A DNA stretch of 64,000 bases from Candidatus Latescibacterota bacterium (GTDB lineage Bacteria > Latescibacterota > UBA2968). The stretch covers positions 1,024,001 through 1,088,000 of the forward strand of contig OZ241986.1 in NCBI GenBank assembly GCA_965204375.1. Reading direction: 5' to 3'. The notes under the pieces were generated by a model. It was not told the origin of the DNA and did not search any database. It saw nothing but the letters and a program-made list of their open reading frames with translations. The position numbers and the translations under genes are program-made. Positions 21,963-25,574 of this stretch are shown here, piece after piece. Within the stretch, counting starts at the first letter, position 1, and each line of letters begins with the position of its first letter.

Positions 21963-22011
21963 TATGTTCATAGGCATATATTGCGATTAAAAATATGTAT
22001 TTATACATATT
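21963..22011. promoter_or_regulatory. Tandem operator-like palindromes TATGT-N6-RCATA
   Basis: Perfect AATATGTAT-TT-ATACATATT at 21992-22011 and TATGT-TCATAG-GCATA at 21963-21978, between divergent genes. Confidence 0.6.
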
Positions 22012-22041
22012 ACACGTTTGCATTTTTGGATTGGAGCCGCT

Positions 22042-22842
22042 ATGAGAAAAATGTATTGGACAGATCTGAGAACTTCTAAAATTCAGTGTGCAAACGCAGA
22101 CGGTTCAGATGTCAAAGATCTCGTTACGACTGGATTGCGTATTCCAAATAGCATCGCCCTGGATGGAGACGGGGGTAAGATGTACTGGACGGACGCTGGA
22201 ACGTCCAAAATTCAGCGTGCAAACCTGGATGGTTCAGATGTCGAAGATCTCGTTGTTACCGATGTATATCTTCCAGGCGGAATGACGGTGCATGGAAAGA
22301 AGAAAAAAATATATTGGACAGACGCGGCCTGGGGAGAGACCGTGGAGTGCAAAGTACAACGAGCGGACCTGGATGGCTCTCATGTCGAAACTCTCGTTTT
22401 CACCGAAATGAGTATTCCCAACGGTATCGTCCTGGATCTGGACATGGGTAAGATGTACTGGACGGACTTAACTAAAATTCAACGAGCGAACCTGGATGGC
22501 TCTCATGTTGAAATCCTCGTTTTCACCGAATTACTGCCATTGGGGATTGCCTTAGACGCAGGTGAAGGGAAGATGTACTGGACGAACTATAAGGGTGCTG
22601 GCGTGTCTAAAATTCAACGAGCGAACCTGGAGGGCTCCGATGTTGAAGATCTCGTGACTGAAGGATTGGATCGTCCGTCGGGGATTGCTCTGGATGTCGT
22701 CAGAGGGAAGATGTACTGGGGGGACTATGACAACTATGGCACGGCTAAAATTCAATGTGCGAATTTAGATGGTTCAGATGTTGAAGATCTTGTTGCTACG
22801 GGATTGGATCGCCCATCGGGGATTTCACTGTGCTGCTTCTAA
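22042..22842 (+). CDS. YWTD (LDL-receptor class B) six-bladed beta-propeller protein
   Basis: Six repeats of KMYWTD..KIQRANLDGSDVEDLV..P.GIALD; GGAG RBS before ATG 22042; no signal peptide. Confidence 0.9.
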   Translation: MRKMYWTDLRTSKIQCANADGSDVKDLVTTGLRIPNSIALDGDGGKMYWTDAGTSKIQRANLDGSDVEDLVVTDVYLPGGMTVHGKKKKIYWTDAAWGETVECKVQRADLDGSHVETLVFTEMSIPNGIVLDLDMGKMYWTDLTKIQRANLDGSHVEILVFTELLPLGIALDAGEGKMYWTNYKGAGVSKIQRANLEGSDVEDLVTEGLDRPSGIALDVVRGKMYWGDYDNYGTAKIQCANLDGSDVEDLVATGLDRPSGISLCCF

Positions 22843-22862
22843 TACCTCCACCTTTTCAAGGG

Positions 22863-22891
22863 TTGACTTTCGCTTTTGCATGGGCTATATT
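22863..22891 (+). promoter_or_regulatory. Sigma70-type promoter
   Basis: TTGACT-17 bp-TATATT. Confidence 0.7.
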
Positions 22892-22897
22892 GGAACC

Positions 22898-23146
22898 ACA
22901 CAAGAAAGGAGGTGGTCGAATGAGTGAAATGACCAGTGGAGGTGGCTGTCGTTAGGTGCGCCTCTGCCAGGAGCGGGAATAGCATCTCGAATGGTAGCGC
23001 ACCTGGCAATCCAAGACAGCCATCGAACGGCTTGTTATCTGCCACATTGGCGATTTTTTGACAATCGCGAGGCAGAAACTTCCGTCAGACGATGCGCCGC
23101 ACGGAGATGGGTCGGTTTTCCGACACCCGACGTGCGGCGCTTTTTT
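22898..23146 (+). ncRNA. Putative structured small RNA with an 11-codon mini-ORF
   Basis: Own promoter and terminator; nested stems GGTGGCTGTC/GACAGCCATC, TAGGTGCGC/GCGCACCTG, TCTGCC/GGCAGA, GCGATT/AATCGC; family not recognised. Confidence 0.6.
23094..23146 (+). terminator. Intrinsic terminator
   Basis: GCGCCGCACG...CGTGCGGCGC stem followed by TTTTTT. Confidence 0.8.
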
Positions 23147-23239
23147 GTGGGTTTCTAACTTGACAAAATTGGATTATACTGTACCTTCAAAGGCTTAAAA
23201 TACTTTGAGATTTCAAATATTTGGAGAGGAAGTGAAAAG

Positions 23240-23671
23240 ATGATGACACCGAGTGCCAAAAAAGGTGATGTTGAACACACCTGGTATGTCGCCGATGCAG
23301 AAGGCAAGATACTGGGGCGATTTGCCAGTGGCGTTGCCCGAATTTTGCGCGGCAAACACAAGCCTTTTTATACCCCCCATGTTGATACGGGGGATCACGT
23401 AGTTGTTATAAATGCCGAAAAAATTCAGGTGAAGGGCAATAACAAAGCCCAGCAGAAGGTTTATACGAGCTATAGTGGGTATCCCAGCGGGCTTAAGAAG
23501 CAAACGCTGGAAGACGCGCTGGAAAAGCGCCCCACATTTGTACTTGAGCACGCGATTCGGGGTATGTTGCCCCACAACAAATTGGGGCGACAGATGATCA
23601 AAAAGGTCCGTATTTACGCCGGGCCAGAGCACCCACACCAGGCTCAGTCTCCTGAGCCTATTGATTTATAG
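23240..23671 (+). CDS. rplM: 50S ribosomal protein L13
   Basis: [29 protein letters not shown] motifs. Confidence 0.97.
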
Positions 23672-23684
23672 AGGAGGTGATTAT

Positions 23685-24080
23685 TTGGCAGTTGAACCAC
23701 TGAGTTCTGCTACGGGGCGTCGAAAAACATCGACGGCGCATGTGAAACTTTTCCCTGGAACGGGATCGATTGTTATCAATGGGCTTTCCGCGCTCGATTA
23801 TCTCAAACGGGAGACATTGGTGATGATTATCGAACAGCCCTTAGATGTGACCGAGACCCGGGGGACTTATGATATTGTTGCCAAAGCAAAGGGGGGCGGT
23901 TTGACCGGCCAGGCCGGCGCCGTGCGATTGGGTATTGCGCGCAGTTTGCAAAGCGTGAATACGAGCAATCACAAACCCCTGCGTCAGGCGGGCTTGCTCA
24001 CGCGCGATCCGCGCAAAGTGGAACGAAAAAAACCCGGGCAACCCGGCGCGCGCAAAAAATTCCAATTCTCCAAGCGTTAA
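23685..24080 (+). CDS. rpsI: 30S ribosomal protein S9
   Basis: TGRRKTS ... RKKFQFSKR; TTG start after GAGGAGGTG. Confidence 0.97.
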   Translation: MAVEPLSSATGRRKTSTAHVKLFPGTGSIVINGLSALDYLKRETLVMIIEQPLDVTETRGTYDIVAKAKGGGLTGQAGAVRLGIARSLQSVNTSNHKPLRQAGLLTRDPRKVERKKPGQPGARKKFQFSKR

Positions 24081-24103
24081 ACCAGAGTATTTTATCTGGA
24101 TAT

Positions 24104-24175
24104 CACATGTATCCTGATTGCTTCACGGGTGCCAGATGGCAATGCGGCAATATGAGGGATGCAGAGGACAAACCC
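24104..24175 (+). ncRNA. rpsB leader (t44-like S2 autoregulatory RNA)
   Basis: CACATGTATCC...GGGTGCC...GGATGCAGAGG..AAACCC resembles the E. coli rpsB leader pattern; directly upstream of rpsB. Confidence 0.75.
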
Positions 24176-24192
24176 AAAGTGCAGGAGGTGAC

Positions 24193-24951
24193 ATGGCTGT
24201 TGTTTCAATGAGGCAACTGCTCGAATCTGGCGTTCACTTCGGGCATCAAACCCGGCGGTGGAATCCAAAGATGCAGAAGTACATTTTTACAGAACGCAAT
24301 GGTATTTACATTGTCGATTTGCAAAAGACGCAGATGCAAATCGAAGCGGCATATCAGGCTGTGCGCAAGGCTGCCGAAACAGGCCAGCCGATTCTTTTTG
24401 TGGGTACGAAGAAACAGGCCAAAGACATCATTTCAGATGCCGCTGAACGCTGCGACATGTTTTTTGTCAACAACCGCTGGTTGGGGGGTATGCTGACGAA
24501 TTTTCAAACTATTCGGCAGAGCATTCGCCGCCTGGATACGCTGGATAAAATGGCCAGCGATGGCACATATGAGCAGTTGACCAAAAAGGAAGTGTTGCGT
24601 TTGGAACGCGAGCGCGATAAGTTGCAAAAATCCCTGGGCGGGATCCGCAGCATGGGGCGTTTGCCGGCACTCGTATTTGTCGTGGATACCAAAAAGGAAA
24701 AAATCGCAGTCGCCGAAGCGCGCCGCCTGGAAATTCCGCTTGTAGCGATTGTCGATACCAACTGCGACCCGGATGAGGTTGACCATCCCATTCCGGGCAA
24801 TGATGATGCAATGCGGTCCATTGCGCTGGTTACAAATTTGATGGCCGAGGCCGTGATCGAAGGGACAACTGTTCGACAGGATGAAGAAGAAGATGCCCCT
24901 GTGCCAGATGCAGGCCCTGAGATTACAGAAATTGATCCCAGCAATAATTAA
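24193..24951 (+). CDS. rpsB: 30S ribosomal protein S2
   Basis: [19 protein letters not shown]; PGNDDA; AGGAGGTG RBS. Confidence 0.97.
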
Positions 24952-24974
24952 ATCAAAAGAGGACGGAGATTGAA

Positions 24975-25574
24975 ATGGCTATTTCTGCAAAAATGGTTCA
25001 GGAGTTGCGTGCCAGAACCAATGTGGGCATGATGGATTGTAAACGAGCGCTTGAAGAGGCCGATGGCGTCATGGATAAGGCTGTTGAGTTGTTGCGTAAA
25101 CGGGGCATTGCCAAAGCCGAGAGCAGGGCGGGACGTCAGGCCAAAGAGGGAGCGATTGCGTCTTATATCCATGCGGGAAGCCAATTGGGGGTTTTGCTCG
25201 AGATCAATAGCGAAACCGACTTTGTAGCGCGTACCGATGAGTTCCAGACGTTTTCAAAAGACGTGGCTATGCACATCGCCGCCGCCGCACCTCTTGTTGT
25301 GAATCGCGAGGAAGTAGATGCCGAAATGCTGGAAAGGGAAAAGAATATTTATCGCGACCAGGCACTCAGCGAAGGCAAACCCGAGCACATCGTGGATCGA
25401 ATTGTGGAAGGCCGCATGGAAAAATACTATGAGGAAGTGGTCTTAATGGAACAGGCTTTTGTCAAAGATCCGGACAAAACTATTCAGGATCTGCACTCAG
25501 AATTGGTGGCCAAGTGCGGTGAAAAAATTACCATTCGCCGATTCGCCCGTTTTGTCTTGGGTGAGGAGAGTTAG
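24975..25574 (+). CDS. tsf: Elongation factor Ts (short form)
   Basis: GMMDCKRAL and ETDFVA motifs. Confidence 0.97.
   Translation: MAISAKMVQELRARTNVGMMDCKRALEEADGVMDKAVELLRKRGIAKAESRAGRQAKEGAIASYIHAGSQLGVLLEINSETDFVARTDEFQTFSKDVAMHIAAAAPLVVNREEVDAEMLEREKNIYRDQALSEGKPEHIVDRIVEGRMEKYYEEVVLMEQAFVKDPDKTIQDLHSELVAKCGEKITIRRFARFVLGEES

Follow-up and report, generated by a model that had tools for sequence, protein, structure and literature searches.

The element and its family

The 64,000-nucleotide (nt) stretch analysed here, referred to as the window, comes from contig OZ241986.1 of a Candidatus Latescibacterota bacterium; coordinates are window positions and the element under study lies on the + strand. 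Directly ahead of the genes rplM, rpsI, rpsB and tsf, the window holds a promoter, a structured RNA that carries near its 5' end a complement of the 3' tail of 16S ribosomal RNA and encloses a mini open reading frame (mini-ORF), and an intrinsic terminator (Table 1). We showed that this element is a divergent member of the Ms_IGR-5 family (RF02471, described in Rfam as 'Actinobacteria sRNA', sRNA standing for small RNA), which was discovered in Mycobacterium smegmatis, and that the family is not confined to Actinobacteria. The original prediction, made from the sequence, had described a canonical promoter, a 16S 3'-end complement able to form about 15 pairs, the mini-ORF MSEMTSGGGCR with a second GGAGGTG inside it, and a strong terminator closing an RNA of about 250 nt upstream of rplM-rpsI-rpsB. 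All of these were found in place, the pairing against the genome's own 16S gene and the downstream genes by Pfam; TGCCAGG and CCTGGCA were present as well, one base off the position implied. The accompanying opinions that the RNA matched no Rfam family and was an undescribed system did not survive.

No Rfam family reached its gathering score in the whole 64-kb window. In a search of 601 nt, RF02471 matched the element with 39.1 bits, below its gathering cut-off of 45 bits, and an E value of 2.1e-7. The match spans 22898-23047 and aligns model positions 1-184 of 184, and when the whole genome was searched with RF02471 the element was the single match (E 5.1e-7). The blocks of the family occur in order in the window RNA, namely ACACAAG-AAGGAGGUGGUC, GAGGUGGCUG, the UGCGCC/GCGC helix and AAUCC..CAGCCAUC. 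Sub-threshold matches to RF02471 were also seen in the control genomes of Caulobacter vibrioides and Thermus thermophilus and none in the control Corynebacterium glutamicum.

Relatives were collected by scanning one genome per prokaryotic species with an exact two-block pattern taken from the window, which gave at least 119 stretches. Eighteen of these loci were tested against RF02471. The cut-off was passed by nine, including the Blastocatellia-labelled L082 (52.3 bits) and L060 (49.6 bits), and failed by the other nine (L044, L053, L058, L067, L077, L093, L096, L101 and L106). The passing loci have the helices P1-P4 described below in common with the window RNA and are intermediates between it and the accepted members. 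A covariance model (R2) was built from 80 pattern-scan sequences, none of them from the order of the window, and in the 6.34 Mb of the genome it found the element as its one match (59.9 bits, E 2.8e-13, model positions 1-138).

The window RNA thus resembles Ms_IGR-5 in its 5' ACACA..GGAGGUGGUC, in GAGGUGGCUG, in a UAG-containing helix and in AAUCC..CAGYCAYC, and further in being single copy; its predicted promoter and terminator would make it a transcription unit of its own. It differs in coming from Candidatus Latescibacterota and not from Actinobacteria. Its P1 and its P2 loop are shorter, a further domain of about 70 nt precedes the terminator, and the terminator has a U-tract. Its P3-P4 junction is 1 nt shorter, hence the mini-ORF uses another reading frame. 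In the Rfam consensus, as printed, the Shine-Dalgarno (SD) block is the partner of the second block and a long-range P3 is missing; the fold supported here differs from it.

Table 1. Features of the element and its flanks (MFE, minimum free energy; SD1 and SD2, first and second SD-like block)
Feature	Position	Strand	Description
Promoter	22863-22891	+	-35 TTGACT 22863-22868, 17-nt spacer, -10 TATATT 22886-22891; 10/12 consensus matches
RNA	22898-23146	+	About 249 nt, inferred start to end of terminator T-run; Rfam match begins at 22898
P1 5' strand, CAC	22899-22901	+	Pairs with GUG 22936-22938; 3 bp in this lineage, 4-6 bp elsewhere
SD1, AGAAAGGAGGTGGTC	22903-22917	+	15-nt complement of own 16S 3' tail; last 4 nt are the P2 5' strand
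P2 hairpin	22914-22934	+	GGUC 22914-22917 with GACC 22931-22934; 13-nt loop contains ATG; in MFE fold
Mini-ORF	22920-22955	+	ATG, 10 more sense codons, TAG; MSEMTSGGGCR; ATG 7 nt after GGAGG
SD2, GGAGGTG	22938-22944	+	Within mini-ORF, 8 nt ahead of stop codon; mostly buried in P3
P3 5' strand, GGUGGCUGUC	22941-22950	+	10 bp with GACAGCCAUC at 23015-23024; 10/10 pairs for L002
P4 5' strand, UUAGGUGCGC	22952-22961	+	Holds stop UAG 22953-22955; pairs with GCGCACCUGG at 22997-23006; in MFE fold
UGCCAGG	22965-22971	+	Alternative pairing with CCUGGCA 23002-23008 possible; cannot coexist with part of P4
P4 3' strand, GCGCACCUGG	22997-23006	+	Partner of 22952-22961; in MFE fold
Single-stranded bulge, CAAUCCAA	23007-23014	+	Between P4 and P3; family consensus GCGAAUCC (alignments A1 and A2); also aligned by Rfam model
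P3 3' strand, GACAGCCAUC	23015-23024	+	Partner of 22941-22950
Extra hairpin domain	23025-23093	+	About 70 nt; order-specific
Intrinsic terminator	23094-23146	+	Stem GCGCCGCACG...CGUGCGGCGC 23094-23140, then T6 23141-23146
Promoter-like site for rplM (outside RNA)	23160-23187	+	TTGACA, 16 nt, TACCTT; directly 3' of sRNA terminator
rplM, rpsI, rpsB, tsf	23240-25574	+	Pfam Ribosomal_L13, S9, S2, EF_TS; E 4e-42 or better

Both ends of the RNA were placed from the promoter and the terminator. A scan of 22000-24500 found the site at 22863-22891 as the sole promoter-like site (2.8 expected from shuffles), and both hexamers are retained throughout the order in the relatives compared. The terminator was missed by a simple scan owing to its long inner loop; it is kept across the order with base changes that preserve pairing. 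In most other phyla P3 runs almost directly into the terminator and the extra domain is absent. The TTGACA at 23160 is retained in both families of the order and is probably part of rplM's own promoter, a weak one given that the promoter scan did not call it.

Fold, 16S complementarity and mini-ORF

The single 16S gene of the genome ends ...GGATCACCTCCTTTCT, and SD1 forms with this tail 15 contiguous pairs, 14 of them Watson-Crick and one G-U. The 12-mer AAGGAGGTGRTC occurs twice in the 6.34-Mb genome, in the element and as the complement of the 16S end. The complementarity of SD1 is maximal for this genome, and it is conserved across phyla. Some acidobacterial variants carry a 1-nt insertion in SD1 (GGAGG-A/U-UGAUCC), with complementarity to the 16S tail kept on both sides of it.

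The + strand RNA folded with an MFE of -116.8 kcal/mol (z = -6.1), and none of 200 dinucleotide shuffles came as low. The opposite strand folds well too (z = -5.2), so that the strand is assigned from the promoter, the terminator and homology. P2, P3 and P4 all appear in the unconstrained MFE fold of the window RNA. The placement of P1 on the window is our own reading of the sequence, and the covariance-model alignment sets P1 one base differently. The full-length MFE fold also paired the A-rich flank of the SD with the U-tract of the terminator; as a family feature this pairing was rejected, being absent in phyla without U-tracts.

From 119 inspected loci and A1, a structure-blind MAFFT alignment of 85 representatives of the pattern-scan loci, a conserved core of four covarying helices was obtained. 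P1 links the 5' end to the stretch immediately before the second SD-like block, and P2 is a hairpin, GGUCC/GGAC in most sequences, whose columns were 93% paired among the 85. P3 links GGUGGCUGnn to a distant nnCAGYCAYC, and P4, just inside P3, carries the stop codon. Between P1 and P2, GAAAGGAGGUG forms an 11-nt bulge which holds the SD1 core, the SD1 block being invariant in A1; a second bulge, GCGAAUCC, separates the 3' strands of P4 and P3.

The helices were scored against controls in which the 3' partners were slid. In A1, 88.3% of cells held standard pairs vs 31-49% in the slid controls, cells changed on both sides numbered 103 vs 12-44, and the covariation score was 0.233 vs at most 0.079. 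The same measures were taken on A3, an alignment of 100 sequences fitted to the structure by covariance model and hence leaning toward it: 87.8% vs 31-54%, 186 vs 17-23, and 0.275 vs at most 0.058. Double changes occurred in 16 of 24 pairs of A3, and 0 of 500 shuffles attained any of the measures. All six modelled pairs of P4 were changed on both sides in A3. The columns of P1 covary in other phyla (AU/GC/CG, CG/GC/AU and GC/AU/CG), the last two pairs of P3 covary family-wide (CG/UG/GC/UA/AU and CG/UA/GC), and the fifth pair of P3 alternates between G-C, G-U and A-U. The original prediction had named covariation of the stems and conservation in relatives as a check on the element, and both were observed.

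In the ensemble of the window RNA the SD1 core GGAGG was unpaired at 94%, UGGUC (in P2) at 2%, the loop with the ATG at 92% and SD2 at 18%; averaged over the 85 sequences, the unpaired value was 0.55 in the SD1 core and 0.25 in SD2. The end of the mini-ORF, which had been predicted to be sequestered, lies in helices P3 and P4. An alternative pairing of UGCCAGG with CCUGGCA is possible. In the sister family these strands are replaced by UGCCGGG and CCUGGCG with pairing kept; the changes are one-sided and confined to this order.

The mini-ORF was scored as present if a start codon (ATG, GTG, TTG or CTG) lay 3-14 nt beyond AAGGAGGTG and its frame stayed open up to a stop no more than 12 nt past the second block. 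Such an ORF was present in 123/124 loci. Among distinct sequences it was present in 116/117, vs 21.9 ± 3.9 when the loop between the blocks was shuffled (maximum 35/117 in 300 trials), and with ATG, GTG and TTG only in 108/117, vs 17.8 ± 3.8. Eight of the nine sequences that fail without CTG carry CTG at the usual place and are mostly titled Acidimicrobiales or Acidimicrobiia; in L138 an in-frame ATG lies farther from SD1. In the set aligned by covariance model, which includes acidobacterial sequences not chosen by the pattern, the ORF was present in 100/100. It traverses helices P1, P3 and P4 and has 11 codons here, 11-14 in most relatives and up to about 19; the acidobacterial matches found by model have frames of 11-19 codons as judged by eye. 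Start codons were ATG in 56, TTG in 37, GTG in 15 and CTG in 8, and stops were TAG in 98, TAA in 10 and TGA in 8. Mostly 7-12 nt lie between GGAGG and the start, and among 98 scored sequences SD2 is 9 nt away from the stop in 85 and 8 nt away in 5. A variant with a 15-19-codon ORF and a recurring in-frame CUGACAGU (or ..GGACAGU) was noticed in Acidobacteriota (L182, L183, L185, L189-L192, L195 and L197-L199).

The frame in which the invariant GAGGUGGCUG is read differs between lineages. It is GAG GUG GCU in 110/124 loci, GGA GGU GGC in 7/124 (the order of the window) and AGG UGG CUG in 4/124 (Planctomycetota-labelled), with 2/124 ambiguous and 1/124 without a frame. The peptides accordingly end ..GGGCR here, ..EVAxx in most and ..RWLxx in some Planctomycetota-labelled loci, and no residue pattern outside helix P3 is shared across the three frames. 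The use of three frames in different lineages indicates that translation is conserved and not the peptide. The stop codon falls in the same P4 alignment columns in 85/100 sequences, and in the order of the window the 1-nt deletion in the P3-P4 junction is matched by a start codon in the corresponding frame. Such frame-tracking across insertions, deletions and phyla, as far as comparison of sequences goes, would be hard to explain without selection for translation from start to stop.

Distribution, neighbourhood and transcripts

Searches by BLAST in relatives of the same genus, family and order found the element, promoter included, in 40 of 41 genomes; the lone miss is a genome of 92% completeness. 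Wider counts were taken with a covariance model, R1, whose strict filters and skew toward actinobacterial sequences make them lower bounds. Matches were present in 52/151 genomes of the own phylum, 74/151 of Actinomycetota, 18/151 of Acidobacteriota and 4/151 of the phylum of the 'Deltaproteobacteria' locus (Desulfobacterota-type). In the own phylum they are concentrated in the order of the window (by family 29/29, 18/19, 1/64, 2/5 and 1/2, and 0 in nine others). The actinomycetotal non-carriers listed are mostly small genomes, and six of the 74 actinomycetotal matches are in genomes flagged unpublished (G174, G157, G204, G276, G244 and G238). Nearly every carrier has one copy. Among the pattern matches listed, most are from Actinomycetota (Mycobacterium, Micromonospora, Nocardioides, Rhodococcus, Cellulomonas, Acidimicrobiia and others); the remaining titles include Blastocatellia, Bryobacteraceae, Planctomycetota/Gemmataceae, Zixibacteria, Sumerlaeota, Syntrophobacter/'Deltaproteobacteria' and Candidatus Latescibacterota, the last with L148.

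Several candidate carriers were set aside. One locus titled 'uncultured Heliobacteriaceae' (L044, genome G156) suggested a Firmicutes carrier, and its title conflicts with the genome collection, which places it in the same phylum sample as the Blastocatellia locus; it is thus no evidence for Firmicutes. L200, of 81 nt, looks like a false match, and L053 (contig end) and L109 (wrong P3 pick) were dropped. Four loci labelled Planctomycetota/Gemmataceae (L067, L077, L117 and L128) show a short variant with SD1, an 11-codon ORF in the third frame and a perfect P3 of 11-12 bp followed by the terminator. They are without P4 and the bulge and scored 24-28 bits with R1, so their homology is unsure and they were left out of A1 and A2; in three of the four a DAHP-synthase-like gene adjoins downstream. 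A further observation was a 35-nt copy of the 5' end of the element, 94% identical, in the genome of a relative (L206, G017:C1:4613500-4614300, locus at about 437-471, - strand). It spans SD1 to the first codons of the ORF, the same 35-nt direct repeat stands on both sides, and it looks like a truncated insertion or duplication.

Of 60 loci from the order of the window, among which some genomes are counted twice, 58 have rplM next downstream of the element; at the other two the contig breaks off. The first real gene downstream in Actinomycetota is convergent; the neighbours there are a convergent gene that we take to be nitrobindin-like and others that we take to be Fur-like and YgfZ-like. The neighbours in other phyla, as judged from N-terminal sequence only, are L31-like, S20-like, ThiG-like, NrdR-like and DAHP-synthase-like. 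No neighbour was shared across phyla, and the clustering of 2798 flanking ORFs gave only lineage-level synteny inside Actinomycetota. Since the neighbours differ between phyla, the element is a stand-alone gene and not a leader of rplM; the stand-alone structured RNA of the original prediction is supported by these neighbourhoods together with its own predicted promoter and terminator and its fold. On the same N-terminal basis, an L31-like (rpmE-like) ORF was seen about 170-500 nt downstream of the Bryobacteraceae-labelled L127, and an S20-like (rpsT-like) ORF ends about 200 nt upstream of the element at L184; with rplM, ribosomal-protein neighbours in three lineages are a slight excess by count alone.

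Two features of the flanks of the element in the window were noted as well. The start of rpsI assigned mechanically is TTG 23661, while GAGGAGGTGAT (about 23673-23683) with a TTG at about 23687 (in 23661-23700, + strand) looks like the real ribosome-binding site and start, and the genome clearly employs long SD sequences. Upstream, an ORF at 22018-22842 (+ strand, 274 amino acids) encodes LDL-receptor class B (YWTD) repeats in five stretches (PF00058, E 6e-49). Repeats of this type are typically found in animal proteins.

Parts of 22600-23700 occur in 14 runs among coral and sponge metagenome RNA libraries. Such assembled contigs show presence in RNA libraries and not ends, strand or level, and their depths cannot rank genes. 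Four runs from four studies were examined. One complete contig of 197 nt covers exactly 22898-23094 (depth 76.4), although contigs cannot prove ends. In the other three runs contigs bridge the whole stretch, element and rplM together, and carry-over of DNA is possible. The contigs of run X8 leave 22822-22895 and 23118-23228 uncovered, and missing cover was not counted as a finding.

Homologues have been described in cultivated Actinobacteria. The Ms_IGR-5 homologue of S. avermitilis is its own transcription unit with mapped start and end (PMC8780764), and that of S. lividans was validated by RNA-seq (PMC8079986). In M. smegmatis, Ms_IGR-5 overlaps ncMSMEG15794c, and the original IGR-5 is listed among previously annotated sRNAs (PMC10454040). 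The homologues of M. abscessus and M. smegmatis carry ribosome footprints (PMC4974804). A literature search on Ms_IGR-5, whose coverage is incomplete and leaves supplements outside, returned no function, no mini-ORF and no spread beyond Actinobacteria, and term look-ups in the accessible text of PMC7856553, PMC4633059 and PMC9094748 returned nothing on this locus. The family is already catalogued; that literature was not found to mention its occurrence in several phyla, its P1-P4 fold or a mini-ORF of flexible frame behind a maximal SD, and priority is not claimed.

Possible roles of the RNA

A ribosome-related role is the most economical reading of these results. We propose that the element is a ribosome-engaging RNA which is remodelled by translation, and give this a probability of about 0.6; confidence is high in the identity and architecture of the element and moderate in the translation-driven remodelling. 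In the proposed mechanism a 30S subunit would dock on the exposed SD1, and the SD1 duplex, growing toward its full 15 bp, would open P2 and present the start codon. A ribosome translating the mini-ORF would then unzip P1, P3 and P4. At the stop codon the anti-SD of the terminating ribosome could re-pair with SD2 in an initiation-like geometry, and after release of the ribosome the RNA would refold. The RNA would in this way switch between two states, one closed and one opened by ribosomes, following the supply of active ribosomes, and the peptide would be irrelevant. Candidate effectors are a protein or RNA at the GCGAAUCC bulge and the 3' strand of P3, or the ribosome pool itself. The RF2 (prfB) frameshift site and termination-reinitiation coupling offer known cases of internal SD-like sites close to a stop codon. 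The element resembles them in having SD2 a few nt upstream of the stop, where re-pairing of the anti-SD is possible, and differs from them in that neither a slippery site nor a conserved downstream or overlapping ORF was seen in it.

Several points weigh against this proposal. The Rfam score of the window RNA is under the gathering cut-off of the family. The sequences of A1, A2, R1 and R2 were gathered by an exact pattern derived from the window, so that their two SD-like blocks agree partly by construction; only the Rfam model and the acidobacterial matches found by covariance model are free of this bias. Related sequences are not independent, and the shuffle statistics therefore make the results look more significant than they are. 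The stop codon and a large part of the ORF double as structural elements, so that constraints on the RNA could account for some of the conservation of the ORF; the start-codon and frame-tracking evidence argues against this. P1 has just 3 bp in this lineage. When a terminating ribosome was simulated as a mask on the end of the ORF, the accessibility of SD1 fell modestly from 0.55 to 0.40, and an SD1-occluding switch as a conserved feature was not demonstrated by this simulation. The RNA evidence in this organism is one assembled contig from one study, translation and ribosome binding here are deduced from the genome, and the output side consists of candidates.

A related but unlikely possibility is that the RNA parks ribosomes, as a pseudo-mRNA that would hold 30S or 70S via the 15-bp SD duplex (and SD2) with translation of the mini-ORF as the release step. 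An SD of the maximum possible length that is unique in the genome, two sites for binding of the anti-SD, a peptide that is not conserved and a stand-alone, single-copy gene would suit such a role, as would the ribosome footprints on homologues reported in PMC4974804. However, a pure sponge needs no open frame with a fixed stop unless translation is the way of release, most of SD2 is hidden, and the depth of contigs is no guide to the level of the RNA relative to ribosomes. This possibility invites comparison with other RNAs. 6S RNA and Ms1 occupy RNA polymerase by substrate mimicry. By analogy only, the element is likewise a stand-alone RNA that would present an ideal substrate to a machine and a short template whose use would free it; the machine here would be the ribosome, and there is no sequence or structural relation. 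Generalised in this way, Ms_IGR-5 might be the ribosome counterpart of 6S RNA, a pseudo-mRNA in several phyla that would store or meter ribosomes and be cleared by translation of the mini-ORF, with SD2 holding the terminating ribosome; we regard both the counterpart and this part for SD2 as improbable. A trans-acting regulatory RNA gated by its own translation, in which the passage of ribosomes would expose or hide the GCGAAUCC bulge or the 3' strand of P3 for binding to a protein or to mRNAs, is quite unlikely. The strong conservation of single-stranded blocks outside the ORF speaks for it, as does the P3 3' strand, an anti-SD look-alike which may pair with the GGUGGU of SD1 and resembles the 16S tail, and M. 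smegmatis IGR-5 stands among previously annotated sRNAs in PMC10454040; but the conservation of the bulge may be purely structural, and the reading has no named target. The bulge also looks loosely like the T-arm of transfer RNA, and the 3' strands of P4 and P3 like the 16S end; both likenesses were set aside.

The original prediction had also considered a translation-sensing attenuator for the downstream ribosomal operon. As a lineage-specific leader, the element would let translation of the mini-ORF set the read-through of the terminator 23094-23146 into rplM-rpsI-rpsB-tsf. The constant position of rplM in the order, the RNA-library contigs from three studies that span element and rplM, and the putative ribosomal-protein genes adjoining the element in two other lineages (L127 and L184) agree with this. 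Against it, the downstream gene is convergent in Actinomycetota and the neighbours elsewhere are unrelated, the bridging contigs may be DNA carry-over, about 140 nt separate the stop codon from the terminator and no antiterminator is evident, and the TTGACA promoter-like site for rplM stands 3' of the terminator in both families. No ribosomal-protein leader described in Rfam, L13 leaders included, was matched, either at gathering score in the window or among the matches with E<=10 in 22700-23300. Leader-peptide attenuators of the trp, his and erm type have a strong SD, a very short ORF in alternative helices and a downstream intrinsic terminator. The window RNA shares the strong SD, the short ORF within helices and the downstream terminator, but the family has no conserved regulatory codons, arrest peptide or peptide and no regulated downstream gene conserved across phyla (rplM only in this order), and the terminator of the window RNA is not adjacent to the ORF. 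We give the attenuator a low chance. That the element is simply the gene of a functional micropeptide, followed by a structured 3' untranslated region, is very improbable: a strong SD, a good start context, an always-open frame and the ..E-V-A-x-x C-terminus of the majority frame are what such a gene would show, yet the peptides read in three frames from one set of invariant nucleotides are unrelated, those residues that are conserved fall together with helix P3, and the N-terminal part shows no conservation. Dual-function sRNAs and transfer-messenger RNA (tmRNA) are stable RNAs with a short translated frame, and dual-function sRNAs encode conserved peptides; the element shares with them a structured RNA containing a mini-frame and differs in that its peptide is not conserved. 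tmRNA is not known to have a canonical SD and start codon, both of which the window RNA has, and no tmRNA family was matched at gathering score. Equally remote is the earlier suggestion of a 16S 3'-maturation partner, in which the RNA would pair with precursor or immature 16S, possibly in the manner of a 'test mRNA', while rRNA matures or subunits undergo quality control. Its complementarity spans the entire single-stranded 16S tail, and in some acidobacterial variants (few sequences, by eye) ..UGAUCC is kept complementary where P2 is not evident. The element is however not linked to rRNA operons or maturation genes, and nothing here tells mature and immature 30S apart; nor would this role account for a start codon, open frame and stop that are kept universally.

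In conclusion, the Ms_IGR-5 family extends beyond Actinobacteria to a sponge- and coral-associated lineage labelled Latescibacterota, to Acidobacteriota and to other phyla. Throughout, a translatable mini-frame stands behind the strongest possible ribosome-binding site, and the peptide is free to change. If the element were merely a well-expressed structured RNA with a vestigial frame, the result would be a routine family extension; if the improbable counterpart of 6S RNA were true, the family would be a global RNA-based governor of translation capacity. The proposed engagement and remodelling by ribosomes turns an orphan sRNA into a concrete, testable RNA-ribosome hypothesis, for which M. smegmatis and Streptomyces are cultivable carriers.

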